A DNA stretch of 64,000 nucleotides from NCBI GenBank assembly GCA_963662655.2, contig CAXXTU010000002.1, positions 1,536,001-1,600,000 of the forward strand, read 5' to 3'. The notes under the pieces are model-generated. The model made no database searches, was not told the DNA's origin, and saw nothing but the letters and a program-made list of their open reading frames with translations. The stretch is from Candidatus Cloacimonadales bacterium (GTDB lineage Bacteria > Cloacimonadota > Cloacimonadia > Cloacimonadales > JAIOQZ01). Every line of letters starts with the position of its first letter. Within the stretch, counting starts at the first letter, position 1. The translations under genes and the position numbers were made by a program. Shown piece after piece: positions 15,749 through 55,823 of the stretch.

Positions 15749-15915
15749 CAGATTCGTTCGATCTCAAGCGGAATCGTGGTGTTTCACACCAGATTTTCGA
15801 CTTTCGTGCAACGAAAACGAAATCTTCGAACGAAAGCCTTTCGCGGAGCGATACAACGAGAGTGGATAATCGGGTGTGGTATATCCACGATGGAGCGAGG
15901 GATCGGGCGAAGATG
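15749..15915 (+). repeat. Intergenic hairpin element copy 1 (subtype A, 167 nt)
   Basis: CAGATTCGTTCGATC...GTGGTGTTTCACAC...GTGTGGTATATCCAC...GATCGGGCGAAGATG; about 90% identical to 55657-55823. Confidence 0.92.
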
Positions 15916-15977
15916 CCGCGATGTGCTGCACGCAAAGTCCACTCATAATTTATGTTCGAATCGAGATTGATCTTCCA

Positions 15978-17201
15978 CTATTTTCTGTCGTGAATCAAAT
16001 CCACCGGATCGTACTTCGTTGTCTTACGGGCCGGATAAATACTCGCCAGCAAAGCGATAACAAAAGCCACAACCGGTACGAGAATCAGATCAGAAGCCCT
16101 GAACTCGACAGGAACCGTACTCAAGGGAAATCCCGGGACAGGGATTTGAACCCACTGCCATTTAATCTGTGTCAGAAGTAACACGATTGCTGAGACGTAG
16201 CCCATGACAATCCCCGAAACACCGATGATCAACCCACCCGTTGTGAATATCCGTATTACATCGCGACCGCTCATGCCGATCGCCTTGAGAATACCCAACT
16301 CCTTGCGTTTCTCCACCACAGTTTTCAAGAAGCTACCCGAAATGTTCAGCGCGACAATCACGAACATCAAGCTGAGCACGGTAAACATCACAATCTTTTC
16401 GATGCGGATCGATGTAAAGAGATTCTTCTCGAACTGACTCCAGTCCTCGATAAAATATTCATCGCCAACCGCTTTCGAAATCGAATTCGCAGTCCGGATC
16501 GCCTTGTCCGCATTCTTGCTGTGAACCTCCAGCCGGTCAATCTCGTCCGTATAGCCCTGGAAATACCTCGCGTTCTCCAATGAGACCATCGCATACAGCT
16601 TATCGTAATCCGGCATGCCCGTACGAAGCAAACCGATCACGCGAAAATTCCTCGAACGCGGCAGCAATCCAAAAGGCCCGGGGTCCATCCCCAACGGAGT
16701 GGAAAGCCGTACTTCCTCACCCACCGTTACACGAAGATCAAGCGACAAGTCCATTCCCAACAGAATCCCGTCGTCCTTCAGACTCGCTTCACCGGGATCG
16801 CCGATGATTACATGATCGCTCAGTGCACTGATATCGATGTGCCGCCGATAATCGATGCCAATGCAGCGAATCGCACTGATCCGATCCCGGTGCTGAATCA
16901 ATAACTCGCTTTGACATACGGGGGAAACGGAAGCGACTCCCTCTACCCGGTCGACCTTCCCCATTACTTCTTCCCAATCCTGCATCGGTTGGTAATCTCT
17001 ATTCATTACGTGGATATCCGATTTGAATCCGATCACCTTGGATCGCATATATCGCTCGAAGCCATTCATGACCGACGAAACGACCAGCAACGCGAACACG
17101 CCCAGTGATATCCCCAGCAATGCCAGCATGTTGGTCGAATTCAAGAAAAGCCTCTTCCTCGATTTCAAGTAGCGGAATGCGATAAAATAGGACGGTTTCA
17201 A
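15978..17201 (-). CDS. LolC/E-type (FtsX-like) ABC transporter permease
   Basis: FIAFRYLKS, GISLGV.ALLVV.SVMNGF, EKRKELGILKAIG, SIYPARK; TTG start. Confidence 0.88.
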   Translation of the reverse strand: MKPSYFIAFRYLKSRKRLFLNSTNMLALLGISLGVFALLVVSSVMNGFERYMRSKVIGFKSDIHVMNRDYQPMQDWEEVMGKVDRVEGVASVSPVCQSELLIQHRDRISAIRCIGIDYRRHIDISALSDHVIIGDPGEASLKDDGILLGMDLSLDLRVTVGEEVRLSTPLGMDPGPFGLLPRSRNFRVIGLLRTGMPDYDKLYAMVSLENARYFQGYTDEIDRLEVHSKNADKAIRTANSISKAVGDEYFIEDWSQFEKNLFTSIRIEKIVMFTVLSLMFVIVALNISGSFLKTVVEKRKELGILKAIGMSGRDVIRIFTTGGLIIGVSGIVMGYVSAIVLLLTQIKWQWVQIPVPGFPLSTVPVEFRASDLILVPVVAFVIALLASIYPARKTTKYDPVDLIHDRK

Positions 17202-17202
17202 G

Positions 17203-20200
17203 TTATAATCCTGCCGTATCGGGATTGATCAACCTCTCAATCATCCTGCTGAGCTTCTGGATATTGTACGGCTTCATGATTACATCGTTGAAGCCTTCGC
17301 TCAACAGATCGTCGATGAGATTTATTTCCGTGTACCCCCGTGGTCGCTATCGCCTTGATGTCCGGATCGATCTTGCGGATATCCCTTAAGATTTCGATTC
17401 CCCCGTTTTCACCGGGGATCGTCAAGTCAAGCAGCACCACGTCGTAAGGTGTTTTGCTTTCAATAGCTTTGTTGAATAACCACAGCGCTCGGTCCTCTCC
17501 CTGCGCCGTGTCGATCTCATAACCGAGATGCTTGCTCAGCCTTTTCAACATCTGGCAAACCTCTTTCTGATCGTCCACGGCCAGTATGCGACCTGTTCCT
17601 TTTATAAATGCTGATGTCGATGAAGCATAAACTTCTTTCTGATCCGATGCTGGCAGATAGATATGAAACGTCGTATATTTCCCCACCTCCGATTGCACTT
17701 CGATTTTCCCGTTGTGCTTACGGATAATCGAATGGACTACCGCAAGCCCCAGGCCATGTCCGGTTTCCTTCGTGGAAAAATATGGGTCGAATATTCTATG
17801 AAGATTTTCCTGCGGAATTCCATGCCCGGTATCGGAAATGCTGATACGAACATATTCACACTGCTCGTCCGGAGCGAGATTTCCCTCCACTTCCCGGCGG
17901 CTCATCGTTCGATTCTCCGCCCAGATTCGGACAAGCCCCCCCTCGGGCATTGCAGCGCTTGCATTGATGACGATATTCTGCACGACCTGGCTCAATTGCC
18001 CCCTGTCTGCGATTACATTCTTCAAATCCTCGGGATGATCGAATTCGCAATCCGTCTTCGAACCCCTGAGCGCAAAGAAAGCCGAGTCCCGGATCACGTG
18101 ATCAAGATCCGTGTTTTCCAGAATAGGTGCGCCCCCCTTGGAGAAGGTCAGCAGTTGTTTCGTCAGCGATTGCGCCCTGCGGATCGCTTTAACAGTCTCA
18201 TCGAGGTTTTCGTAATCAATGGAGGTTTCGTGGAAGTTTGTCATCACCATCTCGATATTGCCCAGCATAATCAATAGCAGGTTGTTGAAGTCATGCGCGA
18301 TACCTCCCGCCAAAATGCCGAGTGAATCCAGCTTCTGCAAGCGAAGACGCTCCTCTTCATACTGGCTGCGCTCGGTGATGTCGAGAGCGACCTTCAAGAA
18401 AAGTTCTTCTCCATCAACATCGGTGAACTTGATGATGTTCGCCAAATAATGCCTGCCGTGAGGATCATTCCACTCGAAAGAGGTGCTGTCGATATTTTCG
18501 TACTTACTAAACAGCTTGCAGCTTTCACATGGAGTATCCCGATCTTGCACAATCTTATGACATAATCTGTTTTCGTATTCCCCATATCGCTCTATGAAAG
18601 CTTTATTCCCATATTTGATCTTGTAATCTCTTGCCTGTATATAGACTGGGGTAGGCAAGAGGTCGAGAATGGTGAAAAGCCTGCTCTTTTCCTGTTTCAG
18701 CTTGGATAGCGCGCTTTCGCGTTCGGTTATATCGTTCATGATTGCTATGATGCTCATAGGCTTACCGTCTTTATCTTTCGCCAGAGAACATAAAAACGCG
18801 AGAGATTTATCGATTCCCTGCGCATTAACAAACGATATTTCTCCATCCCAAAATCCATTACGTAAAACATAATCCAGAATGGTACCTGTTTGGGCCTTAT
18901 CGGGAAACAAATCACGCACATTCTTCCCAACTATCTGCATGGGGTTATCATAGCCGAAGACCTTCACCGTAGCCTTGTTCACATAGGTTACTTTGCCCGA
19001 AGCATCCGCAATACCTATGCCGTTGACGGACGATTCGATTGCGATATCCTTGACTTTCATCATGTCTTCGGACATTTTTTTCATTGTGATATCCTCGACA
19101 ATCCCAAGGATATACTTCGGTTCGTCATTGTCATCGAATATCGGAACTCTCTTCACATTCAGCCAGATGTTGCGAATCCCCGAGTCAATGTGTTCTTCAT
19201 AGAATGTTACATCCTCTCGATTCCTTATCGTTTCCGCGTCCTTCATGTGGTAATATTCCGCGACATCCGGTTTATCCACGATTTCATCATCGGTCTTCCC
19301 GAGCGTTGCAGAGCGTGGAATCCCCGTCATAACTTCAAACTGACGGTTCCAGACGATGAAACGAAAATCGTCTTTGGCATCCTTCACGAAGACGCCGAGG
19401 GGCAGCTCATGAATGATCTGTTCGCTGAATCGTTTCTGATCGTCCAATTGTTTCAGGGCGTTGACGCGTTGCGTAATGTCCATCATCGAGACTATGCGCT
19501 CCATCGTCTCGCTATCCACGCTAATTTTCATGTGGATATGCAGCTCTTCACCCCGGCGGTTGTAGATTCTGAATTCATACTCGGAGGGCGGATTCCCTTT
19601 CATCTCGGAACGAAGCTTATGATAATAAGACATCCGTTCGTAGTCCTCGGGAACGATGAAATCGCTGAGCTGTTTATGCCCTTCAATCTCATCTCGATTA
19701 AAACCTATCAGTTCGCAAAATTTCTTGTTGCAGCGGGTAATAACCCCATCATCGCCGAATATGCACGTTGCCGCACCGGTATTCTCGAATACCAGGCGGT
19801 ACTTCATCTCTTCTTTCTCGATGAGCTGCGCGATCTCCTTGCTGTCCATCAACGGGATGAAGAAGAAGTCGCAATTCTCGCTTTCATCGCTTTGCGTTTT
19901 CACGCCAACGATGCGCATGGGGACTTGGTCATGCTCCGAAAAACTGATGATCTGCTCTTCAGCGTATTTCATGCCCCCAGAAATTTTCCGATACACCTTT
20001 TCGATTCCAGCGCAAGTTTTTGGGCTGAGCCACTTTCTCAGATCATCCTCACTTGGATTGGCGTCATCGATTTTCGCGTAATCTCTGGCAGATTGGTTAT
20101 ACTTGACAATTCGAAGCGAACTGTCGATAATTATATGGGGCACATTGAACAAGCTGCAAAGCAACTCGACGGTGTTATAATTTTCATCCGGCAAATCTGA

Positions 20201-20212
20201 AAACTGTTTCAT
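17203..20212 (-). CDS. Multi-PAS hybrid histidine kinase with +1 frameshift in the receiver domain (as read ends at 17237; repaired frame ends at 17203)
   Basis: Several PAS domains, LAGGIAHDFNN, DTGHGI, FSTK..GHGLGL, receiver VDD/LLDL; the missing GY...GF...KPY tail lies in the adjacent frame after the C5 run at 17335-17339. Confidence 0.88.
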
Positions 20213-20390
20213 CTTATTCCCTTGGTTTCAGAATGATAATTCATTACACAACAGTACCCTGTTTTGATCAAGTAAAAATATTTTTATAGCCCAATAATCT
20301 TTAAAATTATTCAGCTTCCCCGAATAATCTTCTTGCCTGATCGCACCCAACCCGGTTATAAATGCACTGTGCTTCAAGGAGGATAGAACG

Positions 20391-23327
20391 ATGAAAAAGA
20401 AGAGTCTTTTTGTTTTATTATTGCTTGCCGTAACAATGCTTATCGCGTCCGGAGACTTGCCAGACTTCAAGAAAATCATAGAAAATCGACGCCTTCGGGA
20501 GCTGGATGTCTGGAGCACGCAGGATGTTCCATCCAGACAAAACCGCCCCGAGCACAATTTTGACGCGCTCCACTACGATATCGACATCACACTGCTGTTT
20601 GAAACCCTGTCGTTCCAGGTGGATTTAACCGCGGATTTCGAGATACTGGAGGACAACGTGGAAAGCATCACGCTCCATTGCGACGATGCCATACAGATTT
20701 CCGGTATCCAGCAGAGCGATCAGGACGTGGCGTGGAGCCACGAAGATGGTGCGCTACAGGTGAACCTCCTCGAACCGGCTCAAACCGGTGAGATCGTCAC
20801 ACTTCGTTTCGATTACTCGGCCCAGGAATCCACGCGCCTGGAAGACGGACTGAAATACGAGACGCACTCGGGAGTGCCTGTCGCCTTCACCATGTGCTCC
20901 CCCCGAGGAGCCCGGAAATGGCTCATCAGCTACGACCTCCCCGATGACAAGATCGAAGACGTCGATCTGTGGATTACCTACCCCGAAGAATACTCATCCG
21001 CGGCGATCGGCCTGCTTCAAGAAACGATAGACAACGGCGACGGAACCGTTACCGACCACTGGTACGAGGCTTACCCCGTGTGTTCCTACCTGATTTCTCT
21101 CGCCGTAACCAACTACGAGCTCCATACATTCGATTTCACATGGGAAGGGCAAACCATGCCCGTGATGAACTACGTCTATCCCGAAAGCGCGGATAGCCAG
21201 CTCCAGCTCTTCAACCAGTGTGGCGACATGCTCACGTTCTTCTCCAGCATTTACGGCGTTTATCCATTCCTGGATGAGAAATACGGTCACGCGGTATGCA
21301 CGAACCTGGGGGCAACCGCGATGGAGCACCAAACCTGCACGTCCTACAATCCATCTTACATCAACGAAGAGGACGCACCCTACACCGTCGCGCACGAGCT
21401 CTCGCACCACTGGGGCGGAGACTGCCTTTCCATCAGCGATTGGAGCCATGTGTGGCTCAAGGAAGGATTCGCGTCATACTCGGAAGCGCTCTGGGCAGAA
21501 AGCCTGTACGGATCCGAGGGACTCATCGAATACATGGAAGCCTTCGACACGGGAAGTCAGCTTGATCCCAGCCTCTACCGCGATCCCGAAGGAACCGCCA
21601 ACGAGATTTTCAACTGGACGATCTACGCCAAAGGCGCCTGGGCCATGCACATGCTGCGCGGGGTAATCCGCGACGAAGACTTCTTCCAGACGATCGCCGG
21701 CATTCTCGAGGATCCCGACTTTCGCTACGGGAATTTCTCCACCGACGACCTGATGAACTACGCGGAGGATGTCTCGGGGATCGAGCTCGACTGGTTCTTC
21801 GACTGCTGGTACCCCAACGAAGGCAGGCCACGCTACGACTACACCGTATTCGCGCCGGAGATGTACTTCCCCGAGATGCACTGGTACTCCATCGCCATTC
21901 AATCGCAGGGAACCGCCGGCGACGAGTTCACGATGCGAATCCCGATTCGGCAAGGCGCTTTCGACAGCTCCATCCTGGTTGAACCTGGAGCGAATTATAT
22001 TCATACGGGGCTTCAAGTCAGCGGTTGGAATGTTGAGTTCGATCCCGACAGTTGGGTGCTGGACGGCGGCTTCACCGAGCGCCTTCCCATCCTGAACGAA
22101 ATCCCGAGACGCGACGGGAAAGTGATGCTGGTGTGGGATTACTTCTTCGACGACATGGTCGAAGGCTACTGGATTTTTCGCAGCAACGGAGGTGAATTTT
22201 CCAGGCTGAACGAAGAACCGCTCGAAGCGATATCATTCCTCGACGAGGATATCTCCCCCGATTCGCTTTACGCTTATAAAATCTGCGCGGTTCTCAGCGG
22301 AAGCTACTCCGATTTCTCCAACACCATTGTAACGCAGCCGATCGATTATTCGTTCAATAGAGGGATTTTGGTGGTAGATAACACCATGGACTATAGCAGT
22401 CCCACGCTCCCCACGGATGAAGAGATGGATGAGTTTTACGATGATTTGATGAGATATTACGCCTACGACACATGGGATGTCAGCGATCAGGGCTATCCCC
22501 CGCTTTCGGAGATGGGGCGCTACTCGACGATCATCTGGCATGCGGACGATATCCAGCAGTCACCAATCGTCGATGACATCTACCGGCTTCAGAACTACTC
22601 TCTCGCCGGCGGGAAACTGATTATCTCCCAATGCAAGAAGACATCCGCCATGCAGCCCTCCGAGCTGGAAAGTTTTTTCGGGATCGATGCCGTTTATTTC
22701 AACAATCAGCCCGACTTCGTCGCAGCGATCTCGCAGGACGAGGAATACGTCATGGACATCCCCGTCGATACGGATCGACTTCCCCTCCCCAATTGGACGA
22801 ATGCCCTGGGGTACGTCTCGCGCTTCGACGTCGATGAATCCACCGAGGTTATCTTCCGGTACGACTCCATCAACGACGATCCCGCCTGGGAGGGGCAGCC
22901 TTGCGGAATATGGTTGCACGATCCCGAGATCGTCCTGCTCGGGTTTCCGCTTTATCACATGATGGAATTCGAAGCGGAGCATTTCATGCAACACGTCCTG
23001 CACGAATTCGGCGAACTCGAACCGGCGGTGGATGACCAAACCGCACCGGCTTGCGAGATGGAGGTCAAGCTCTACCCCAATCCGTTCAACCCGGAGCTGA
23101 ACATCAGCTTCATGCTCGATCGCGAGGGGGAAACAAGCGTGAGTATTTACAACGTCCGCGGCGAATTAGTTCGTAAATTTGAACCTGAAAGGTTGACAGC
23201 CGGAAGACACACGTATAATTGGGGTGGGAGAAATTCTGCAGGAAACCTCGTTTCCTCCGGAGTTTATTTTGTCAGAGTACACCATGACGGTGTCGAGAGA
23301 ATTTCGAAAGCGTTATTGATCAAGTAA
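20391..23327 (+). CDS. Secreted M1 family aminopeptidase with FlgD-Ig/T9SS-type C-terminal domain
   Basis: Signal peptide, AMEH, HELSHHW...WLKEGFASY (HExxH-x18-E), IYAKGA, C-terminal YPNPFNP...SSGVYF. Confidence 0.88.
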   Translation: MKKKSLFVLLLLAVTMLIASGDLPDFKKIIENRRLRELDVWSTQDVPSRQNRPEHNFDALHYDIDITLLFETLSFQVDLTADFEILEDNVESITLHCDDAIQISGIQQSDQDVAWSHEDGALQVNLLEPAQTGEIVTLRFDYSAQESTRLEDGLKYETHSGVPVAFTMCSPRGARKWLISYDLPDDKIEDVDLWITYPEEYSSAAIGLLQETIDNGDGTVTDHWYEAYPVCSYLISLAVTNYELHTFDFTWEGQTMPVMNYVYPESADSQLQLFNQCGDMLTFFSSIYGVYPFLDEKYGHAVCTNLGATAMEHQTCTSYNPSYINEEDAPYTVAHELSHHWGGDCLSISDWSHVWLKEGFASYSEALWAESLYGSEGLIEYMEAFDTGSQLDPSLYRDPEGTANEIFNWTIYAKGAWAMHMLRGVIRDEDFFQTIAGILEDPDFRYGNFSTDDLMNYAEDVSGIELDWFFDCWYPNEGRPRYDYTVFAPEMYFPEMHWYSIAIQSQGTAGDEFTMRIPIRQGAFDSSILVEPGANYIHTGLQVSGWNVEFDPDSWVLDGGFTERLPILNEIPRRDGKVMLVWDYFFDDMVEGYWIFRSNGGEFSRLNEEPLEAISFLDEDISPDSLYAYKICAVLSGSYSDFSNTIVTQPIDYSFNRGILVVDNTMDYSSPTLPTDEEMDEFYDDLMRYYAYDTWDVSDQGYPPLSEMGRYSTIIWHADDIQQSPIVDDIYRLQNYSLAGGKLIISQCKKTSAMQPSELESFFGIDAVYFNNQPDFVAAISQDEEYVMDIPVDTDRLPLPNWTNALGYVSRFDVDESTEVIFRYDSINDDPAWEGQPCGIWLHDPEIVLLGFPLYHMMEFEAEHFMQHVLHEFGELEPAVDDQTAPACEMEVKLYPNPFNPELNISFMLDREGETSVSIYNVRGELVRKFEPERLTAGRHTYNWGGRNSAGNLVSSGVYFVRVHHDGVERISKALLIK

Positions 23328-23354
23328 ATAGAACCACACAGGAGATATTGGGCT

Positions 23355-25904: not shown

Positions 25905-26911
25905 GAATACTGGTTACAGGTGGCGCAGGCTACATTGGAAGCCACGCCTGTGTCTCATTGCTTGAAACAGGCAATGAAGTCATCGTAGTCGACAACCTTT
26001 CAAATAGCAAAATGGAATCGATCAGCCGTGTCGAGCAGATCACCGGCAAGAACATTCAGTTTCACAAGACCGACCTTCTGGACGCCTCCGGGCTGGACGG
26101 TTTGTTCGAGCGGACGAAGCCGGATGCGGTCATTCACTTCGCGGGTTACAAGGCAGTCGGAGAATCCGTGGCCAAACCCATGATGTATTACCACAACAAC
26201 ATCACCGGAACCATCAATCTGCTGGAGAGCATGAAGAAGCATGGCGTGGATACGCTCATCTTCAGCTCATCCGCCACGGTCTATGGCGATGCGGATCGCG
26301 TCCCGATAACGGAAGACTTCCCCCTGAAGCCGTACAGTCCGTACGGCTGGACCAAGTTCATGATCGAGCAGATGCTCCGTGATCTTCATGCAGCCAATCC
26401 GAACATGAGCATCGTTCTGCTCCGCTACTTCAATCCGGTGGGAGCGCATCCCTCCGGAAATATCGGCGAGGACCCAAACGGCATCCCCAACAACCTGTTC
26501 CCCTACATCTCGCAAGTGCTCATTGGGAAACGCAAAAAACTGCATGTGTTCGGCAACGACTACCCCACTCCCGACGGCACCGGTGTGCGCGACTACATTC
26601 ACGTCATGGACCTCGTTGATGGCCATGTGGTCGCACTGGAGAAATTGCACGGCAAACAGGGGGTTTTCACTTACAATCTCGGGACGGGAATCGGATACAG
26701 CGTTCTGGACATCGTCAAGGCGTACGAAAAGGCTTCCGGGAAAGAGGTCCCCTACAGTTTCACCGAACGACGCAGTGGCGATGTGGCGATTTGCTACTCC
26801 GACCCTTCCAAAGCGAAGGCTGAGCTGAGTTGGGAAACAAGGCGAAGTCTGGAAGACATGTGCGCAGACTCCTGGAAATGGCAGACCCAGAACCCGAAAG
26901 GATATGAATAG
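25901..26911 (+). CDS. galE: UDP-glucose 4-epimerase
   Basis: ILVTGGAGYIGSH, FSSSATVYG, YGWTK, LRYFNPVGAH, DGTGVRDYIHV; ATGA overlap with glgP stop. Confidence 0.96.
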   Translation: MRILVTGGAGYIGSHACVSLLETGNEVIVVDNLSNSKMESISRVEQITGKNIQFHKTDLLDASGLDGLFERTKPDAVIHFAGYKAVGESVAKPMMYYHNNITGTINLLESMKKHGVDTLIFSSSATVYGDADRVPITEDFPLKPYSPYGWTKFMIEQMLRDLHAANPNMSIVLLRYFNPVGAHPSGNIGEDPNGIPNNLFPYISQVLIGKRKKLHVFGNDYPTPDGTGVRDYIHVMDLVDGHVVALEKLHGKQGVFTYNLGTGIGYSVLDIVKAYEKASGKEVPYSFTERRSGDVAICYSDPSKAKAELSWETRRSLEDMCADSWKWQTQNPKGYE

Positions 26912-26937
26912 ATTTCTTTGAAAAAGTAGTTCGTGAA

Positions 26938-27074
26938 CAGATTCGTTCGATCTGCCGCGCAGGCGTGGTGTTACACTTCATGAAGCGCAACATGAAAAGC
27001 ATGTTAGCTGCTGATTAGTATTGCGCTGAATGAAGTGTTATATCCACGGCGGAGCGGGAGATCGGGCGAAGATG
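26938..27074 (+). repeat. Intergenic hairpin element copy 2 (137 nt, divergent)
   Basis: Same terminal boxes; inner stem changed compensatorily to ACACTTCAT/ATGAAGTGT; between convergent genes. Confidence 0.9.
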
Positions 27075-27088
27075 GCACGAACGGATAT

Positions 27089-33284: not shown

Positions 33285-33320
33285 CGCATGATTAAATCGT
33301 GAACTGCCGCGAGGCGGGAG

Positions 33321-33452
33321 CAGATACGTTCGATCCCCGCCTGTGCAGGGTGTTCCACAGCTATTTTCGGCTTTGTCGTAGTCCAAACGAAATCATGTTA
33401 GTGGAATTTAGCTGTGGTATATCCCTGTGCAGGCGGGGATCGGGCGAAGATG
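33321..33452 (+). repeat. Intergenic hairpin element copy 3 (subtype B, 132 nt)
   Basis: GATCCCCGCCTGTGCAGGG...CCCTGTGCAGGCGGGGATC arms with family boxes; about 94% identical to 36423-36554. Confidence 0.92.
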
Positions 33453-33528
33453 CCACGCCGGTCGGACGAGAAGCAACATACTCGATTCTGCACTCGAATG
33501 AGCACATCGAAATCGATAAAGGAAACCC

Positions 33529-36388: not shown

Positions 36389-36422
36389 CTCACGATGTAT
36401 TTCGCAAGCCACGAGCTTCGAA

Positions 36423-36554
36423 CAGATTCGCTCGATCCCCGCCTGTGCAGGGTGTTCCACAGCTATTTTCGGCTTTGACGTAGTCCAAACGATATCATGT
36501 TAGTGGATAATCGCTGTGGTATATCCCTGTGCAGGCGGGGATCGGGCGAAGATG
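36423..36554 (+). repeat. Intergenic hairpin element copy 4 (subtype B, 132 nt)
   Basis: Near-identical direct repeat of 33321-33452; sits between two terminators. Confidence 0.92.
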
Positions 36555-36620
36555 CCGAAGCGTTCGATTACAGAATGAAACCATCTCTCTTCTCTCCTCC
36601 CCCATCCAGCTTCAGACAAT

Positions 36621-36666: not shown

Positions 36667-37263
36667 TCATTCCCCCACATCGTCCAGCAACTCCTCATGG
36701 AGCCGCTTGCGGGGTGAACTGTCGGGTAATTTCCCCATACTAATAAACAGCGTCACCTGCGTCCCTTTGGGAACCATGGATTCGGAAGACGGCTGCGTAA
36801 AGATAATCTTGCCGTTCTCAACATCTTCAGAGTAACGTGTCTGTATCTTCTGATTTACATCCAGTCCCATATTTCGGAGCGTCAGACGAGCCTCTTTACG
36901 GGTCATGTTCACCAGGGATGGCAAGGTCACCAGCTCCGGGCCATCACTCACGACAACCTCGATAACCCTCCCCATCTTGGTGTTGGTTCCAGCCTCGGGC
37001 TTCTGCGAAATGATTCTGTTCTTCTTGACCTCATCATTGAATTGACGCTCTGTCTCTTGAATATAAAGGTGCTGCTCCTTGCATCGCTTCCTCGCAACGT
37101 CGAAATGCAAACCGGTCACTTCCGGAACGCGAATCTCCTTGCCATGCCTGGTAATCATGTTCATGACCATGTTGGTTCCGAAAAAACCGATAAGAAACAC
37201 CACGAGAAGAAACCCGATCGCTCCTCCCGCTATTGATATGATTTGTATTATTTTGTTCTTCAT
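36667..37263 (-). CDS. PASTA domain membrane protein
   Basis: N-terminal TM, two VP.V.G...IISQ.P.G repeats. Confidence 0.87.
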   Translation of the reverse strand: MKNKIIQIISIAGGAIGFLLVVFLIGFFGTNMVMNMITRHGKEIRVPEVTGLHFDVARKRCKEQHLYIQETERQFNDEVKKNRIISQKPEAGTNTKMGRVIEVVVSDGPELVTLPSLVNMTRKEARLTLRNMGLDVNQKIQTRYSEDVENGKIIFTQPSSESMVPKGTQVTLFISMGKLPDSSPRKRLHEELLDDVGE

Positions 37264-43062: not shown

Positions 43063-43119
43063 TGTGCTCCCTTCTTACTCTTTATTCGTTGCTTACGAAA
43101 ACATCAACATACTCGGGTA

Positions 43120-43237
43120 CAGATTCGTTCGATCCCCATTCTCGTCGTGGTGTTTCACACCCTTACCACCGCACTCTCCCCTTCCATTCGTAGGGGTGTG
43201 GTATATCCACTACGAGAATGGGGATCGGGCGAAGATG
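43120..43237 (+). repeat. Intergenic hairpin element copy 5 (118 nt, shortest)
   Basis: Family boxes; arm CCCCATTCTCGT/ACGAGAATGGGG differs from other copies yet pairs. Confidence 0.92.
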
Positions 43238-43277
43238 CCCCGAGCGCCGACCTCGCAGCGACATTCTCTCGATATCT

Positions 43278-44579: not shown

Positions 44580-44678
44580 CTCGACTCCTTATTCTGCGGA
44601 ATATAACAATTATATCCACACATAAGCGCGTGTCAATGATAATCTTCCTGTATTGTCATCAGCATTTCCCATGCAAAC

Positions 44679-44706
44679 AAAAATCCCCGGCGATGAACCG
44701 GGGATT
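44679..44706 (-). terminator. Intrinsic terminator after the GLUG gene
   Basis: AAAAATCCCCGG-7nt-CCGGGGATT. Confidence 0.65.
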
Positions 44707-44726
44707 GATATTTCACGCTCGTACAA

Positions 44727-47700: not shown

Positions 47701-49499
47701 GACGTTCCTCGCATTCTTCCGACAAAGCCTCCGACATTGCCGCAATCAACCGAGATATCACTAATGCAGTAGCAGGAATTTACTTCGGAATTCAACATTT
47801 CGAATACAAATCCCGCTCCTTGATTCTCTCCAGTAATTATACATGCTGCCCTGGAATTTTCGATCAGGGTGTGGTTCGTGATTGTTGAGACCATCCCAGC
47901 TCCACAATAGAAACTTTCAACCGAGCCCCCAGCGGTACACCCCGTGATTGTGGAGTTAGCGGCCTTTCCGACCATACCCCCAACATCGTCGCTACCGGAT
48001 ACCGTCACGTTCGTCTCGCAATCTTCAATCGCGCTTGTGTCGGATACAAAGCCGGCCAAACCTCCGATATAGTTATTTCCGTCGGTGATATCGCCGGTTA
48101 CCTTGCAAGTAATGAACCACGAGTTAACGGCCGATCCGACAAGTCCCCCGACACGCGACGCTCCCGTAATGTCTACATTGATCAACCTCAAGTCGTGAAC
48201 CATAGCGTTTTGAGTATACCCGAACATACCCTGATTATCTGTATCGGGGCGGTCGCATATAAGATTGGAAATCCTGTACCCGTTTCCGTCGAACGTTCCA
48301 GAGAAGGGGATGCTGCTATGTCCGATCGGCCTGAAGCCGGCTCCATTCGCCCAGCTCTGAGTATCTTCAGCATTGATGTTTGACGACATGCGGAAGTATT
48401 TATCCCAGTAGTCAACCCGGGAACTGAGCCAGAGCAGATGATCAAGCTGTGATATTGTGTATGGATTGCTCGAGATGCCTTCTCCGGATGGTTGTGTGCC
48501 GGCGGGAGGAAAATGTTCGTATCCTTCCCAGGCAAGGAAGGGGTAGCCTTCGTTGTAAAGTCCGTTCATGCCCCAAATGTCGTTCGTGCCGTCGCCGGAA
48601 TCCACCATGAAATCCCATCCTATTGTCTGGTAGGGGGCAATCTCTTTCATGTTGACAGTTTGAAGCCCTATTCCGCCGAAGCTTGAAGTCTTTCCTGAGC
48701 TGTCCGTATCCCAGACGCAGTTTAATATCAAGTAGTTATCCGAATAACCGACAAGCCCCCCAGTAAAAGTCGATCCGTTAACCAGGCCTGTACTGTAGCA
48801 GGATTGAGCGGAGGAAGAGTAATTAGCTCCCAGCAATCCACCGACATAGCTTGTGCCGGTCACCGTCCCGCGTGCATAGCTTGATGTGATTATCGCATTG
48901 TTGTTCGTCTTCCCAACAAGTCCGCCGGTGGCGTCTGACCCTGTAACATTGCAGAAACTCCAGCAATTATCGATCACACTGTTTACACGCAGGAATCCGA
49001 CAAGTCCGCCAGTGGAGCCTGAGCCGGTTACCGATCCTGTGCTGTAGCAGTTTATAATATGTGATGTCCCGGCACATAACGAAGCAAGCGCTCCAACTCT
49101 CGTATCGCCAGTGATACTGCAATCCGTGATACCCAAATTCTGGATTGTCGCACCATTAACACGCCCAAAGAGGCCCTGATCATTGGCGGTTCGATCGATA
49201 AACAGACCGTCGATCTTATAGTGATCTCCGTCGTAAGTACCGGTAAAATCGGTATCTCCATCTCCTATAGGAGAAAATCCGGCACCGCTGTTCCAACTGG
49301 AAGTCCCTGAGGCGTCGATATCGTCCGTCTGAATGAAGTGACTCGACCAGCTTCCAGAGTTTGTACTGAGCCATAAAAGATTGTTGAGCGAATCGATTTC
49401 ATAAGGACTACCCGATGTACCTGAGCCCACAGGCTGGGTTCCATCGGCGAACAGGCCGAGTGAAAGCAGCAAAAAAACATATACCGGCAAATAACGCAT
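44727..49499 (-). CDS. Large secreted GLUG-motif beta-solenoid protein with four tandem modules
   Basis: Signal peptide; four P.G.G...PY.I...L.W starts and four N.GYP.L.W ends; many VGGLVG...I..C.STG.V repeats. Confidence 0.87.
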   Translation of the reverse strand: MRYLPVYVFLLLSLGLFADGTQPVGSGTSGSPYEIDSLNNLLWLSTNSGSWSSHFIQTDDIDASGTSSWNSGAGFSPIGDGDTDFTGTYDGDHYKIDGLFIDRTANDQGLFGRVNGATIQNLGITDCSITGDTRVGALASLCAGTSHIINCYSTGSVTGSGSTGGLVGFLRVNSVIDNCWSFCNVTGSDATGGLVGKTNNNAIITSSYARGTVTGTSYVGGLLGANYSSSAQSCYSTGLVNGSTFTGGLVGYSDNYLILNCVWDTDSSGKTSSFGGIGLQTVNMKEIAPYQTIGWDFMVDSGDGTNDIWGMNGLYNEGYPFLAWEGYEHFPPAGTQPSGEGISSNPYTISQLDHLLWLSSRVDYWDKYFRMSSNINAEDTQSWANGAGFRPIGHSSIPFSGTFDGNGYRISNLICDRPDTDNQGMFGYTQNAMVHDLRLINVDITGASRVGGLVGSAVNSWFITCKVTGDITDGNNYIGGLAGFVSDTSAIEDCETNVTVSGSDDVGGMVGKAANSTITGCTAGGSVESFYCGAGMVSTITNHTLIENSRAACIITGENQGAGFVFEMLNSEVNSCYCISDISVDCGNVGGFVGRMRGTSQISNSYNQGTIAICANATGGFAAQMLDTSKTENCYSACTMTGSSLNNGGFVADLFTSPHVVDCFWDAELSGISISEGGTGLTTAEMKQLASYYDNGWDFIDEYSNGSDDYWGLNASENDGYPFLAWQGYEHTAGSPEKPDGAGTEADPYRIAVMKNLLWMANSSGNWGDYYLQVADIELSSRTNWTPIGNDVLPFTGYYDGQGYSIDGLNISGSGSYQGFFGYLDSANVANIELTNVSIVASDTAGGLVGKAVNSTVIGCSVRGSVQGGDSIGGLAGSISDTAITGCSGNVEIIGVEFTGGFVGKAVGQLLPDESFSTIILESSCTGSVIGNSPGGLIGEGRRFTVERCFSSMDVTVVETGGGFIGSTNGAINAVDCYCHGVINAPANHAGGFMYIPSSDNSFTRCYSTCSIPNGGGGFIVGYGMPGTFRQCYWDVDASGVEESVKGTGLCTAEMQSYITFYLGGWDMMDESANGTDDIWGVNPVENGGYPFLSWQGYTNVGGIPTGSGTEQDPYQIADFSHLYWLSEESDVWDAHFVQIADIDATEGESYNDSEGFKPIGSSSDYFVGVYDGQDFAIDGLKINRPDGYYQALFGYIVYGTVRNVRLTNCNIIAKMNSGGIAGRLEAGTIAGCYTSGQITGDTFYIGGMAGITWGSTISGCHNAAGIFGENHSGGIAGWNQETAIIDCCNTGDIDGRSGIGGICGYHYYGEITDCCNLGEVSSNLDLCGGIAGELITAELNTSFSSGNVSSVNQVGGAVGQCIDTTIENCYSTGQVTGNDAVAGFVGAASDGCAIVNCFSTGFVDGITNAAGFIASRSATNIQNCFYDTATSGMSTSNGGTGLPTDQMKDSNTFIFNGWDFKGETMNGTEDFWKLDGVNNSGYPLLSWEEGTPVVPVLPNNLSFMTMGSDVVYTWDVLPYVDGYRIYSSDSPNGIFTEDTSGVFDNTSWIAPMSGNRRFYMFKSYIDDEGRGNRSNARKTVVAETPGRKN

Positions 49500-49589
49500 G
49501 TTTTTCCTCCTTTGACAATATGTACAAACTGAATACGATTTACCGAATGATGTCAAGATTTTTACTTTGAGGAGGTTATGTGTAAGATT

Positions 49590-49622
49590 AAAAAAAATCC
49601 CCAGAAACGATATTCCGGGGAT
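49590..49622 (-). terminator. Probable terminator after the ferredoxin
   Basis: A8-TCCCC...GGGGAT imperfect hairpin. Confidence 0.5.
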
Positions 49623-49654
49623 AAGTTTTTCAGATTATTTGATTGATATTGAGG

Positions 49655-49828
49655 TTATGGAGAGTCGATACAATTTACCGGACACTCCTGAGCGCACGCT
49701 CCGCAATCGACACATTTCTCGGGATTGATCCAGCGTTTCTCATTGACTTCCGATATTGCTTCTACAGGACAGACGACTTCACAAGCCCCACAGTTAATGC
49801 ACTCGTCCTTCCGGATATTGAAAGCCAT
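49655..49828 (-). CDS. 2x[4Fe-4S] ferredoxin
   Basis: GGAGG RBS; CINCGACEVVCP and CVDCGACAQECP, 57 aa. Confidence 0.93.
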   Translation of the reverse strand: MAFNIRKDECINCGACEVVCPVEAISEVNEKRWINPEKCVDCGACAQECPVNCIDSP

Positions 49829-49952
49829 ATCGCCTCCTTGGTATTCATACGACAATATGCCGCCGGACCAAGTCAAGACAAATTATATCTTTGAAATAAA
49901 GAAAGATAGCTTTCCCTGAGCGGATTTATACACTTCTATTTTTTTACCTTAA

Positions 49953-50291
49953 TCACAGAAGCCGCGAAGACTTGGTCGGTTTGGGCGTTTTCACGACAAG
50001 GATCCTCAGCGTTGAACCCGAGCGATTGTGCCAGCAGTGCGGGATACTCTTCGGGCTTTCGATCAGCGTGTCACGAACCACTTCGAGACTCTCGTCGCCA
50101 ACATCCACGACTCCGGTACCTTCCAGAACATAAAAGAACACATCAACAGGTGTGATATGGGGAATCAGGGACTCTCCGGGCTCGAGCGTAATGTGCATAA
50201 CCTGAGCGTTTTCTTTTTCGTATATTTTGCTGACTTTCACCTTGTGAGGCGTTTCAAGCAATTTTGCCATCTTGTATGTCATGATATTCAT
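49953..50291 (-). CDS. Cupin domain protein
   Basis: LEPGE...H.TP.D..FYVLEG.G, P...PH..N. Confidence 0.85.
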   Translation of the reverse strand: MNIMTYKMAKLLETPHKVKVSKIYEKENAQVMHITLEPGESLIPHITPVDVFFYVLEGTGVVDVGDESLEVVRDTLIESPKSIPHCWHNRSGSTLRILVVKTPKPTKSSRLL

Positions 50292-50339
50292 GATTTCTCC
50301 TTTTTTCATCGAAATGCGCTCGAAGACAATAATGTCCCG

Positions 50340-50430
50340 TTTCCGCTTTGAAAGAGTATTTGCTATAGTTCAAAGCTGTAGAATCATTTCGATTTCCAAT
50401 CACGGGGCAAATACTCTTCCAAAGCGGAAA
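50340..50430. repeat. 24-bp inverted repeat (23/24 match) with 43-nt spacer
   Basis: TTTCCGCTTTGAAAGAGTATTTGC ... GCAAATACTCTTCCAAAGCGGAAA. Confidence 0.85.
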
Positions 50431-50487
50431 GCGTCCCAAAATCGCTGCGCGATCCCACCCATTGATGCGAGCGCATTTCGAGAGAGT

Positions 50488-50516
50488 GGGAGGCTCGAGA
50501 TGAATTCGAGCCTCCC
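50488..50516 (-). other. GC-rich hairpin just after the hcp stop
   Basis: GGGAGGCTCGA-7nt-TCGAGCCTCCC, no clear U tract. Confidence 0.6.
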
Positions 50517-50525
50517 GGATTGCGT

Positions 50526-52151
50526 CTATTTTCCTGCCATCATAGCAGCCACGTCGTCTTCGACGGAGCCGATAGGTTTAATGTCGAAGTTTTCCACGAG
50601 CACCTTCGCGACGTTGGGCGAGAGGAACGCCGGCAGGGTTGGCCCGAGGCGGATTCCCTTCACGCCGAGGAAGAGCAGCGCGAGCAGCACCGCAACGGCC
50701 TTTTGTTCGTACCAGGCAATGTCGAAGGAGATGGGCAGGTCGTTGATGTCGTCGAGCCCGAAGACCTCCTTGAGCTTGAGGGCAATGACCGCGAGCGAAT
50801 AGGAGTCGTTGCACTGACCGGCATCCAGCACGCGCGGGATTCCTCCGATATCGCCCAGATCGAGCTTGTTGTAGCGATACTTGGCGCATCCTGCGGTGAG
50901 GATGACGGCGTCCTTGGGAAGCGCTTCCGCGACTTCGGTGAAATAGGTGCGAGACGGGAATCTGCCGTCGCAGCCGGCCATCACGACGAATCGTTTGATC
51001 GCTCCTGATTTGACTGCTTCCACGACCTTGTCCGCGAGCTGCATCACCTGATGATGCGCAAATCCGCCGACGATCTCGCCCTTCTCGATCTCAACGGGTG
51101 GCTTGCACTTCTTGGCCAGTTCGATGATTTCGGAGAAGTCCTTCCTGCCGCCCTCGGGACGGTTCGGGATGTGTTTCACGCCCGGGTAGCCGACGATCCC
51201 GGTGGTGAAGATGCGATCCTTGTACGAATCCTTTACCGGGACGATGCAGTTGGTGGTCATGAGGATGGGGCCGTTGAACGACTCGAACTCCTCGTTCTGT
51301 TTCCACCATGCGTTGCCGTAGTTGCCCACGAAGTGGTCGTATTTCTTGAATGCGGGGTAGTAGTTGGCGGGAAGCATTTCGCTGTGGGTGTAGACGTCCA
51401 CGCCGGTGCCTTCAGTCTGTTCGAGCAGTTCCTGCATGTCCTTCAGGTCGTGACCGGAGATGAGGATGCCGGGGTTGTTGCGGACGCCGATATTGACCTT
51501 CGTCAGCTCCGGATTGCCGTAGGTGGAGGTGTTTGCCTCGTCGAGGAGCGCCATGGTGTTGACTGCGACTTCGCCTGTCTTGAGGGTAAGTGCGATCAGA
51601 TCGTTGATGGGAATATCCTTCGTGGTGGCCGCCATCGCCTCAATGATGAAGCTGTAGATATCCGGATTCTCCTTGCCCAGCACGGCGGCGTGTTCGCCAT
51701 ACGCGCAGATGCCCTTGATTCCGTAGGTGATCAGCTCGCGCAGAGAGCGGACGTCTTCGTTTTCGGTCTGTAACACGCCGACAGTTTGCGACTTCGCGAT
51801 TATATCCGCTTCGTTGTCCGAATACCACGTGGCGCAGTCCGGTAGATCACTCGTGACGTTGAATTTCGACTTGAGGGATTCCCGCAGTTTGAGAGCGGCC
51901 TTGATCTGCTTTAAAAGATCGTCGCGGTCGAAATTGGCGTTGGTGATGGTCTTGAACATGGATTCCATGAAGAATTTGCCTGTGATTGAATCGACCGGAT
52001 GGCCCGATTTTTCCTGAATTACGGCTGCGCCCTTGAGCGTGTAGATCAATAAATCCATCATATCAGAGGTTTCCGCGGATTTTCCGCAGACACCCTTCGC
52101 GAAACGGCAACCCTTGTTGCCTGCATTTTCCTGACACTGGTAACAGAACAT
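50526..52151 (-). CDS. hcp: Hybrid cluster protein (hydroxylamine reductase)
   Basis: MFCYQCQE...GC...[41 protein letters not shown]. Confidence 0.97.
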
Positions 52152-52161
52152 GTATTCCTCC

Positions 52162-52977
52162 TTATTTGATTTGTCCGTCGATGGTTACGATGTTGAGCTT
52201 TACGAATAGAATCTTGCCTGCAAGTTCAAGCGCTTTGCGAACGATCATCTCGGTTCCGCCGCAGCAGGGAACCTCCATTCGCACGATGGTGATGGACTGG
52301 ATGTCCTGATTTCTGAAAATCTCCGCCAGCTTTTCGATGTACTGGTCAAGTCCCTTGTCCAGCTTGGGACAAAATGTTATTACGACTTTGCCGTTCATGA
52401 ACTTATGGTGAAAATCCGCATAGGCATAAGGTACGCAATCCGCGCTGATCAACAAGTCGGCTTTTTTCAAGTACGGCGCGGAAGGGTTGAGCAGATGAAG
52501 CTGTACCGGCCAGGTGCGCAACAGGGACGGCATCTCGCGCGGCTCAATTTTTTTTTGCTCAGCTTCGATCTTTTTCGCCGCGCTACCGGGGCACCCTCCT
52601 TCAACGCTGCACGACTTGTTTTCGAGCTCGGGAATCGCAACTCCGCGCTCCCTGAGGCTTTCCAGCGCTTGCGAAAGGTACACCAGTTCACCGTGATCCT
52701 TCAGGTGCTGGAGGTGCGCCTTGATTGTGGCGGGACCCGCTTCGATGATGTAGGGCAGCACCTTCCGCTCGTCGTATGGCTCCGCCTCGCGTTCCTCGAT
52801 CGAGATCGCACCCAACGGGCACTCTCCGATGCACGCGCCCAGACCGTCACACAAGTAATCCCCTACCAGACGGGCCTTGCCGTCGATGAGCTGCAGCGCG
52901 CCTTCCGGGCAACCCGGGATGCAGGCTCCGCAGCCGTTGCATTTGCTTTCGTCTATCGTGATAATCTCTCGTTTCAT
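52162..52977 (-). CDS. 4Fe-4S binding protein
   Basis: [54 protein letters not shown]. Confidence 0.88.
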
Positions 52978-53004
52978 TTTATCTCCACTGTGCTTTTTGC
53001 ATTT

Positions 53005-53026
53005 TTGTTTGTGAATACTCACTAAC
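53005..53026. promoter_or_regulatory. Putative TetR operator 1
   Basis: Imperfect palindrome GTTTGTGAATACTCACTAAC; 20/22 identical to the inverted copy at 53700-53721. Confidence 0.72.
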
Positions 53027-53067
53027 TCTTTTTATTATACAAATATGTAGCGCTTTCCATTTCATTT

Positions 53068-53649
53068 TCAGCTTTTCAAAAGGGTTCGCAGTGATTGAAT
53101 CAAGGAATGTCCCTCTTCCACCAGATCGAACCGGTTCCCTTCGAGAATCCAGCGCGTTACCAGCAAGCGCAGGGCTCCCACGGTGATCATGAAGATGTGG
53201 TCGAAGGCGATGTCGTTGCGAAGTTGTTTGCTTTCGGAGGCTTCCTGCAGCGCTCCGCGGATGAAAACGCGGTGCTGCTTCATCATGGCGAGCATCATTC
53301 CCGCGAGTTCCTCTTCCATGCTGAAGTTCGATTCGTTCATCAGGACTTTCGCCCAGGTCGGGTGCGTGGTGAAGTAGTGGAACCGCATCGCGAAGAACGC
53401 GTCCAGCTTGTCGATTCCCGCCAGGCTCCGATGCTCGATCTCCTCATGAATCTCTCGCATCCGCTCATCGAAGCAGCGAATGATGGTCGCGAGGATATCC
53501 TTCTTGCTTTCGAAGTGGCGATACACCGCCGGTTCGGTGAAGCCGATCGCCTTCGCGAGGTTCTTGATCGTCAAATTCTGCACGTCGCGGGTGGCGATGA
53601 GCTCCACCGCCTTTTCGATGATCTCTGTCTGTCGTTCGGTCAGTTCCAT
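53068..53649 (-). CDS. TetR/AcrR family regulator
   Basis: RQ.EII..A..LI...LTIKNLAKAIGFTEPAVYRHFESK. Confidence 0.92.
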   Translation of the reverse strand: MELTERQTEIIEKAVELIATRDVQNLTIKNLAKAIGFTEPAVYRHFESKKDILATIIRCFDERMREIHEEIEHRSLAGIDKLDAFFAMRFHYFTTHPTWAKVLMNESNFSMEEELAGMMLAMMKQHRVFIRGALQEASESKQLRNDIAFDHIFMITVGALRLLVTRWILEGNRFDLVEEGHSLIQSLRTLLKS

Positions 53650-53699
53650 TTATACTCCACTTTCGCTGTTTCGTTTTCACTTCGTGAAAGCCGAACGCT

Positions 53700-53721
53700 G
53701 TTAGTTAGCATTCACAAACAA
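53700..53721. promoter_or_regulatory. Putative TetR operator 2 (autoregulatory)
   Basis: GTTAGTTAGCATTCACAAACAA about 50 bp upstream of the tetR start. Confidence 0.7.
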
Positions 53722-53891
53722 GATATTCCAGAACGCTCGGGATGTCAAATAGTTTTTTTCCCGGCTGCTGTATTACGCGCTATGCAATGCCCGGCAATCT
53801 ACAGCCATGGCTTTGTAACAGCCTGCGCCGAAAATACATTGACACATGAATCCCCCGCATTAAGAAAAGGAAAACGTATTGGAGAGATGAT

Positions 53892-55634
53892 ATGGCGGAG
53901 TGGGTAAGATATGAGGTGGGCAAACGTGTGCACAGACCACATTCAAGAATTTCAGATAGGAAGCAATTTGAATATCGTATTGAAGTACTTTTCATTAATG
54001 AAGATGGCGATATTGTTGAGAACAAGAAGTATTCTTTAGCATCAAATAAAGATATCCAGAAAGATATCCAAGCAGGAAAAGACATCAACCTAACACATTG
54101 TTTCATAGAGAGATTATCTATAGGACTAAGCGAGAAAGACATATTGTATGAAAACCATATAGATATTAAGAGTATTATAGCTGTCGACTCCTTTTTTGAT
54201 AACGGGATTAAGCTCTCAGGTGCACATATACAAGGTCTCGTTTCTTTCAGCTATTCTCGATTTGGTTACGGCATAAAAGAGTTTGAAAGAATGGTTTTCA
54301 AAAAGGGAGTCAGTTTTAGCCAGACTCATTTCTTTGATGGCCCAATATCATTCTATAAGACAGAGTTTTATGGGAAAATGATTCAATTTAATGGCATGGA
54401 TTATGGAGACGGAAATATAAACTTTTCCAATACTACCATAAAATGCGACGGCTTCGATATGAGCTATGCAAAATTTCTTCATGGCCACATTTCATTTAAA
54501 TTCTCCAAACTAAACTGCAGCAATATATATTTTACAAACATAGATTTTGGCATTGGCAATGTGATATTCGATTTTGCTATTTTCGATGCACCTCTCGTGT
54601 CTTTTAGTGAATCTATATTCGATAGCGGATTTATAAGTTTTGATACAACCGAGTATAAAGGCAAGCTGTTGGATTTTACTCGAACAGAATTCACAAATAG
54701 TAAATTGAATTTCAGGGGAGGTGATTTCGATAACTCCAGCATTAACTTCCACCTGACCAGTTTTACTGACTGCAAGCTTGAAATGTATCAGTTTGCTATT
54801 AATTACGGCGACGCAGTCTTCAGAGGAGTTACCTTAAACAATTCTATAATTAATATCCAATCCTCATTTATCAAGCTAATCATTATTGATTCATTAATGT
54901 TAAATAACCCCGCGAGCCTTAAAGATTCAAATTTCAATTATGTCAAAATGACCAATTGTACATTCTATGATATAATAGATCTTACAAACACAACAATTGA
55001 CACCCTCATACTTCAGGACTGTCTGAACCTCGGATGCCTGAAAATCAAATGGAAAGAAAACAACCTTGAAAAAGCAATTGAATCACTTATTGATTACAAG
55101 GAATGCAGCAACCAACACCACCGCGCCGCCGAAACCGCCCTCCTCCTGAAAGAAAACTTCCGTAAGATGGGGCGATACGAGGACGAGGATTGCGCGTATT
55201 ATACCTATATGAAGCATCAAATACGATACGAATATCTTGAAGGAAAGAAAGATAAGCATCGTATCTGGAATTGGACGAAATTCCAGTTCAAGAAATGGAT
55301 TTATGAAAGACTGGGTGGGTATGGTACAAAACCATTCAATATCTTCGTATCAATGCCGTTTGCTATCGGCGCATTTGCGGCAATTTATTGGTACGTAGTT
55401 TCAAAATGCCATCTTGGGTCTACGGCTTTCAAAGATGTTACATTGACAGATTACAGTCTGGAAACATTTACTCAAATGCTCTACTACAGCGCAATTACTT
55501 TTCTTACAATTGGGTATGGAGATTTCTCACCGATCAATCCCTGTATTCGCGCCCTGGCCAGCTTCGAAGGGCTGATTGGGCTGCTGCTGATATCCTACTT
55601 CACAATCGCGTTTTCACGTAAGGTCCTGCGCTAG
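53892..55634 (+). CDS. Pentapeptide-like repeat protein fused to a two-TM potassium-channel domain (AT-rich gene)
   Basis: Periodic (I/V)xFxxxxF repeats; C-terminal TM-LYYSAITFLTIGYGD-TM selectivity filter. Confidence 0.8.
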   Translation: MAEWVRYEVGKRVHRPHSRISDRKQFEYRIEVLFINEDGDIVENKKYSLASNKDIQKDIQAGKDINLTHCFIERLSIGLSEKDILYENHIDIKSIIAVDSFFDNGIKLSGAHIQGLVSFSYSRFGYGIKEFERMVFKKGVSFSQTHFFDGPISFYKTEFYGKMIQFNGMDYGDGNINFSNTTIKCDGFDMSYAKFLHGHISFKFSKLNCSNIYFTNIDFGIGNVIFDFAIFDAPLVSFSESIFDSGFISFDTTEYKGKLLDFTRTEFTNSKLNFRGGDFDNSSINFHLTSFTDCKLEMYQFAINYGDAVFRGVTLNNSIINIQSSFIKLIIIDSLMLNNPASLKDSNFNYVKMTNCTFYDIIDLTNTTIDTLILQDCLNLGCLKIKWKENNLEKAIESLIDYKECSNQHHRAAETALLLKENFRKMGRYEDEDCAYYTYMKHQIRYEYLEGKKDKHRIWNWTKFQFKKWIYERLGGYGTKPFNIFVSMPFAIGAFAAIYWYVVSKCHLGSTAFKDVTLTDYSLETFTQMLYYSAITFLTIGYGDFSPINPCIRALASFEGLIGLLLISYFTIAFSRKVLR

Positions 55635-55656
55635 CGGCCACCCGGCGCTCCACACG

Positions 55657-55823
55657 CAGATTCGTTCGATCGTGAGCGGAATCGTGGTGTTTCACACCCG
55701 ATTTTCGGCTTTCGTGCAACGAATACGAGATCTTCGAACGAAAGTCAATCGCGGAGCGAAAATACGAGAGTGGATGATCGGGTGTGGTATATCCACGATG
55801 GAGCGAGGGATCGGGCGAAGGTG
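55657..55823 (+). repeat. Intergenic hairpin element copy 6 (subtype A, 167 nt)
   Basis: Near-identical to 15749-15915; between convergent genes. Confidence 0.92.

Follow-up and report, generated by a model that had tools for sequence, protein, structure and literature searches.

The six intergenic hairpins on the plus strand of the stretch shown here (the window: 64,000 nucleotides of the Candidatus Cloacimonadales bacterium assembly GCA_963662655.2, contig CAXXTU010000002.1) are members of a dispersed, vertically inherited repeat family of Cloacimonadota. The repeat superfamily to which they belong is real and apparently undescribed. Most of the covariation in their stems is mutational in origin; conserved mismatches support a constraint on the fold of one strand. 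The explanation we favour, with roughly even confidence, is that the hairpins are a vertically inherited, REPIN-like non-autonomous single-stranded DNA (ssDNA) element mobilized in trans, which would make them a new relative of the repetitive extragenic palindromes (REP) and REPINs. The source genome of the window is referred to as G000 (3.8 Mb, two contigs), and its genus kin as G001, G002, and G003.

The hairpins of the window and the source genome

All six hairpins described in the initial annotation are present, with their outer and inner boxes and paired variable stems, and a covariance model returned exactly these six matches in the window. No box pair occurred in 50 shuffled windows, and DNA folding of three copies against shuffles gave z scores of -7.9 to -8.8. 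The boxes lie where they had been placed, but the true element is about 10 nt longer on each side (about 20 nt in total), the extension forming an outer stem with a bulged A. With this stem included, copies 2 (26927..27085), 4 (36412..36565), and 6 (55645..55834) are each located between convergent genes, copy 1 (15738..15926) lies antisense between two minus-strand genes, and copy 5 (43109..43248), likewise antisense to its flanking genes, has a near-perfectly paired middle stem and a pyrimidine-rich apex. The best match of copy 3 (33310..33463) is copy 4, and the two are local same-strand duplicates with different outer stems; copy 6 is 91% identical to copy 1. Copies 3, 4, and 6 each depart from the outer-box consensus at one position. 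The apex varies in length, as originally described, and we add that the long apices of copies 1, 3, 4, and 6 contain a nested second repeat (at approximately 15793-15870, 33364-33408, 36466-36510, and 55701-55778, respectively), which also occurs as a free-standing copy on the minus strand at 53651..53695. This second repeat is a family of short hairpins with GNA triloops; of its 38 pattern matches, 23 are nested in an element apex and 15 are free-standing, sometimes in tandem arrays.

The genome scan suggested in the initial annotation yielded 116 strict box pairs in G000, one of them spurious, and 141 copies after a profile search; the genus kin were also positive. None of the 141 copies lies inside a gene according to our own calls (2,833 genes). 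They are distributed over 60 convergent, 71 tandem, and 10 divergent spacers, where 154, 654, and 278 spacers of at least 120 nt, respectively, are available. Eight tail-to-tail doublets occur.

From the foot upward, the element (110-190 nt) comprises an outer variable stem of 6-7 bp, the bulged A, three pairs, and a tandem G.A; an 11-bp stem with two T.G wobbles and a 12-bp variable stem, often with a purine 3x3 loop; and an inner duplex with a bulged T, a G.T, and a T.T, followed by a 5-bp stem and the apex. Among 130 standard-length copies, 90 have a loop containing c(GRTA)g at the apex, and 18 of 19 short kin copies are capped by a c(GAA)g triloop; the other apex types are a pyrimidine loop and the nested second repeat. 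The non-canonical positions, said to be kept in the six window copies, are kept genome-wide: T.T occurs in 115/115 and G.T and the bulged T in 112/115 of those copies that could be parsed (115 of 133, hence selected for box likeness), while the two T.G wobbles are retained in 120 and 121 of 133 copies and the first tandem position is G.A or G.G in 128 of 133. The two strands of the inner duplex are exchanged in 27 of 196 copies, and each can close alone as a small hairpin, as in two deletion derivatives.

The window genes are ordinary chromosomal genes, and none encodes a cognate enzyme, as had been noted. A sigma-70 promoter excess was looked for between 26700 and 43500 and not found. On the minus strand at 37195-37228, in or just before the start of a PASTA-domain gene, a short stretch without a model match resembles parts of the right and inner boxes. 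Elsewhere in G000 (C2:834287-836514; L177), a umuD-like gene, an element, a umuC-like gene, and a half element follow one another, so that the Y-family polymerase gene is flanked by outward-facing copies. A link of the copies to secreted proteins with a C-terminal sorting domain was not significant.

Covariation, mismatches, and the folding strand

From the replaced yet still paired stems of the window copies, it had been proposed that the fold, and not only the sequence, is selected. In the covariation test, 33 of 45 pairs showed two-sided changes among 55 copies, and 0 of 500 shuffles reached the score (without phylogenetic correction). This covariation is real but largely mutational, one arm being overwritten by the complement of the other, and is therefore no proof of selection. 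Of 109 middle stems, 37 are perfect or at most one pair short of it, and among those 37 the ancestral purine signature persists in the 3' arm only in 22, in the 5' arm only in 2, and in neither arm in 13. In two copies the whole left box is replaced by the complement of the right box, and at one orthologous G002/G003 site both arms changed together, with flanks 0.93 and 0.87 identical and a core identity of 0.72. These changes bear the signature of template switching in quasi-palindromes, a mechanism that has been described (PMC5941160). We infer that the rewriting occurs mostly during bottom-strand synthesis.

It is the mismatches, not the pairing, that carry the evidence for selection. Non-canonical outer-box positions have turned Watson-Crick in only 30 of 532 cases (fully converted copies excluded), compared with 37 of 109 middle loops, and thus survive the rewriting pressure. 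The original proposal is accordingly upheld for a fold of one strand under constraint, which these mismatches support, but not for its argument from replaced and re-paired stems, which arise by template switching without selection. The hairpins are a natural case of template-switching covariation and a warning for structured-RNA searches that rely on covariation alone.

Departures at Watson-Crick positions are G.T in 40 cases and A.C in 13, identifying the top strand as the folding strand. DNA-type loops are about threefold more frequent than in shuffled sequences (cGNAg, 188 versus 67; cGNYAg, 100 versus 33), whereas RNA-type loops are not enriched (cGNRAg, 42 versus 31; cUUCGg, 1 versus 5), all of these counts being inflated by shared ancestry. 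For GCGNAGC/GCGNNAGC hairpins, the DNA form is reported to be far more stable than the RNA form (PMC13037366).

The folding strand is also polar with respect to replication. With dnaA at the GC-skew minimum of G000, the top strand is the lagging-strand sequence, so that the strand which folds is the template of the leading strand, in 100 of 136 copies (100 versus 36, p 4e-8). The same replication orientation is found in 51 of the 68 copies in spacers with symmetric transcription (51 versus 17), and in tandem spacers the top strand is antisense in 49 of 71 (49 versus 22). On the closed G001 chromosome, 32 of 33 copies follow one partition, and the element strand is C-rich at 33/33 and 44/51 kin loci.

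Distribution and comparison with known repeats

Covariance model R1 matched 3 of 151 phylum genomes, all of the same genus, and a fourth genus member also matched; the genus kin have 37-65 matches each (opposite-strand echoes included). Weak single matches in genomes G005 and G006 pointed to a homologous sister family, found across the order and built with a single cap hairpin and an additional mini-hairpin on the 5' side; BLAST gave 43 matches to it in G005 and 18 in G006. The sister model R2 matched 13 of 150 phylum genomes, two of them weakly (E 0.008) and perhaps by chance; the 13 include 9 of 9 genomes of a second family, as well as G000 with a single copy. Both hairpin families have the outer motif and the cap in common, the latter being present in 27 of 31 sister loci. 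The single sister-type hairpin of G000 (C2:1883618-1883737; L447) is located between two hydrogenase/NADH dehydrogenase subunit-like genes.

At eight loci in five genomes (L449, L452, L453, L461, L467, L469, L473, and L474), the sister hairpin lies antisense within a 23S rRNA insertion, and Rfam confirmed the 23S identity of the three sister-bearing rRNA loci tested. The insertions are AT-rich, approximately 190-240 nt long, found in one Cloacimonadales genus, and situated about 1,200 nt into the 23S; G000's own 23S has no such insertion. The sister copies sit within what resembles a 23S rRNA intervening sequence, a class of insertion placed at helix 45. The hairpin rides in it as a passenger, on the antisense strand, and can also be found standing between protein genes.

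The initial annotation recognized no Rfam family in the hairpins, and an Rfam search of the window indeed returned only tRNA. Across the window, 20 further loci, and 10 sister loci, Rfam gave only tRNA and rRNA, the best other match scoring 29.5 bits against a cut-off of 77; the 20 further loci had only sub-threshold generic hairpins. Four pattern matches in other phyla lie within coding DNA and were rejected as chance, four in viral contigs were not model-positive, and JGI metagenomes and plasmids gave no match. A 14-mer in common with G004 was dismissed as part of nine identical longer repeats. No earlier description was found in the literature searched, most subscription journals and ISfinder lying outside that search.

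Tests for membership in REP, attC, and miniature inverted-repeat transposable elements (MITE) were negative. With REP, REPIN, and BIME and their RAYT (TnpA-REP), the hairpins have in common that they are extragenic, high in copy number, vertically inherited, and favoured in convergent and tandem spacers; further common traits are an imperfect ssDNA hairpin with conserved mismatches, tail-to-tail doublets, and a strand-specific fold. However, REP/REPIN hairpins are 20-40 nt long and have an unpaired 5' GTAG-type foot and a Y1 gene flanked by copies, while the element is a multi-module hairpin of the length given above, whose flanks, judged from their logos, pair as an outer stem and lack the GTAG foot, and no Y1 gene is linked to it. 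Its strong replichore polarity is likewise unlike REP/REPIN, and the outer-box 7-mer is absent from the REP table of PMC6006769. Class 3 TnpA-Y1 hairpins (CnGA foot; PMC6006769) resemble the element in having the tetranucleotide CAGA at the base of the stem and tandem GA within stems; here, by contrast, CAGA is paired within a longer stem, the hairpin is 4-6 times longer, and G000 has no Y1 gene.

The ends of IS200/IS605 and derived elements are similar in their one-strand hairpin, extrahelical T, absence of target duplication, and replication-tied orientation. They consist, however, of left and right ends, where the element is one long hairpin on the opposite template, and two end hairpins, guide/cleavage tetranucleotides, and TnpA/TnpB were not seen in the element or in G000. 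TnpA-REP and IS608 enzymes are reported to recognize a single folded strand by its bulges and mismatches (PMC8266576, PMC3333891), a substrate design that the element shares. Integron attC sites have in common with it a reliance on structure over sequence, extrahelical bases, a variable terminal structure, similar length, and a folding strand lying mostly on the leading-strand template, but the hairpins are dispersed among housekeeping genes in both orientations, with no cassette arrays and no integrase seen to be linked. The R boxes of attC carry AAC and GTT, and no core of this type was seen at the hairpin ends on either strand. As for MITEs, whose terminal repeats match a resident insertion sequence, the ends of the resident ISL3-like element differ from those of the hairpins. 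The copies lie kilobases apart, with none of the regular spacing of CRISPR.

Candidate mobilizers and alternative explanations

An enzyme gene flanked by copies or co-distributed with them, as the initial annotation envisaged, did not emerge: none of 11 enzyme families searched (Y1, tyrosine recombinases, GIY-YIG, reverse transcriptase, DUF559, IS110, TnpB, IS91 Y2, serine resolvase, four-helix bundle, and GxxExxY) is linked to copies, with IscB, HNH, Rep, and relaxase outside the search. The IS91 Y2 null is uninformative, since control genomes were equally silent. Enzyme loci returned by these searches, scanned with one or both models, contain no copy except one in G000, at a distance of 10 nt from a XerC/D-like gene's stop, with no counterpart at the kin loci. 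G000 has six tyrosine recombinase matches, obtained with a profile not specific to IntI; TnpB is absent from 8/8 family genomes, and none of 17 kin Y1 loci contains a copy of either model. We also read the neighbour genes listed for all 141 G000 copies (proteins of at most 480 aa) and of most kin copies, submitting 84 proteins to Pfam; the neighbours are ordinary chromosomal genes in both orientations.

Several other features of these genomes were recorded. The kin also carry DUF559 genes, and in the kin another repeat often directly follows the hairpin; G000 has neither Y1 nor DUF559. A broken GIY-YIG gene at G000:C2:884800-885500 (L151) is flanked by its own palindromic repeats. A presumably ISL3-like element (13 copies) is inserted in A/T runs, three times beside a hairpin copy (L022, L023; G000:C2 1506270, 1950524, 3484913), and G000 also has eight copies of what appears to be an IS3-like element and several related segments that we take to be Mu-like prophage (C2 1-10, 477-510, 2725-2758, and 3290-3322 kb; C1 11-21 kb). 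Kin genes without a G000 homolog occur beside or between copies at L123 583-1524, L141 10555-11532, and L349 2713-3570, the first two without a Pfam match.

Copies appear to have moved. The best match of a copy lies within 15 kb on the same strand in 11 of 133 cases (1.2 expected), and empty orthologous sites, which the initial annotation suggested looking for, are seen in G001 at 8 of 9 aligned syntenic sites (picked from a synteny comparison), including that of window copy 2; these sites are too diverged to give the element ends. At most 4 of 138 copies share a 4-mer at any offset, so no target duplication was detected. Of the three candidates put forward at the outset, a REPIN-like non-autonomous element fits best. 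Under this explanation, a protein would recognize the top strand by its irregularly paired positions (bulged A, tandem G.A, T.G wobbles, bulged T, and T.T), and new copies would arise through rare copying events at the 3' ends of genes, their bottom strand lying on the lagging-strand template or being the sense strand. Positions between the boxes, being free, would drift and be re-paired by template switching in bottom-strand synthesis. The mobilizer could be a trans-acting ssDNA (HUH-like) or host enzyme that is unlinked, unrecognized, or lost. The polarity might reflect loss of copies with the folding strand on the lagging-strand template; alternatively, the top strand may serve as the template and its bottom-strand copy be inserted, which would also explain the direction of arm rewriting.

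Several observations count against REPIN-like mobilization. The genome with the most copies, G000, lacks a Y1 transposase, and the several unrelated Y1 genes of genus and family kin (L157-L173, L253-L268) are each accompanied by their own unrelated REP-like repeats. No insertion boundary or guide/cleavage pair is definable from the copies and sites, and the element is kept at 12/12 comparable G002/G003 sites, so that it moves only slowly and may owe its conservation in place to a host role. IS608-type elements are reported to have their active strand on the lagging-strand template (PMC5027513), whereas the better-folding strand here is on the other template, requiring an extra assumption. At the sister loci of G005 and G006 the element strand is G-rich in 14 of 16, with the opposite skew sign, although these loci are short and their origins not mapped. 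The inflation of the loop counts by common ancestry likewise counts against it. A bolder version, which we regard as unlikely, is an order-wide class of self-propagating ssDNA hairpins using no known transposase family: the folded top strand would be recognized and copied into a bottom strand, the 5' arm being rewritten in that step, and a host or undescribed enzyme would insert the bottom-strand copy into ssDNA exposed at forks and in transcribed regions, rRNA genes among them.

Retention at all 12 G002/G003 sites could instead indicate a domesticated chromosomal site of the host. Such a site would be a polar hairpin formed by ssDNA of the leading-strand template, to which a host protein binds (as a priming, restart, or termination aid at gene ends), and would have been spread and homogenized by gene conversion with no dedicated transposase. 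At two sites compared between species, core identity is 0.84-0.86, against 0.45-0.57 for the flanks and, for one pair, about 0.47 for four-fold sites; the core can be replaced while the site persists (the orthologous G002/G003 site above), and mini-hairpins are reported at primase and polymerase sites (PMC13037366). G001 and G000 have copies at common gene ends in 20 of 57 cases (5.5 expected; the operon-end control is imperfect), but orientation at these ends is random (8/20, 9/17), copy number within one family spans 0 to 141, most phylum genomes lack the element, and the 23S intervening-sequence location and local duplicates resemble insertion events. We think a host site rather improbable. 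A structured RNA, that is, a 3'-end or antisense element perhaps spread by reverse transcription, is disfavoured somewhat further: its G.U-compatible changes, tandem GA, and purine 3x3 loops suit RNA too, in 132 of 133 copies the better RNA fold is that of the top strand, and gene 3' ends are strongly preferred, yet in tandem spacers and rRNA the strand that folds is mainly antisense, GNRA and UUCG loops are not enriched, and reverse transcriptase has no match in G001 and in G000 only one, with an internal stop.

An attC-like folded recombination site, shuffling genome segments or gene cassettes, would account for fixed boxes, extrahelical bases, and a variable apex, and its leading-strand-template folding recalls attC in sedentary integrons, where a like polarity is reported to limit excision (PMC5371416); some direct pairs of copies in kin also enclose genes without a G000 homolog. 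Gene order between G000 and G001:C1 1-720 kb is heavily shuffled (more than 100 breakpoints among 496 orthologs), and copies show a raw excess at breakpoints (27/91 versus 5/107, odds ratio 8.6). This enrichment disappears when spacer type and length are stratified (odds ratio 0.98-1.25; 2.3, p 0.04, with the loosest filter only), so the rearrangement-site idea was rejected; moreover, the neighbours are the ordinary genes described above and two conserved tyrosine recombinases also occur in family genomes without the element, leaving a recombination site with little probability. Least probable are inert relics whose strand bias stems solely from deletion of the more stable orientation: template switching does explain paired stems without selection, and deletion and symmetrized derivatives exist, but the mismatches resist rewriting and the outer motif is kept across two families.

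REP/REPIN are the known example of long-lived, vertically inherited replicators in bacterial genomes, and their mode of spread in vivo is not yet settled. A family with the REP/REPIN lifestyle but a different anatomy, clear replication polarity, and no recognizable enzyme points to a second route and offers a defined substrate for tracking down the protein.

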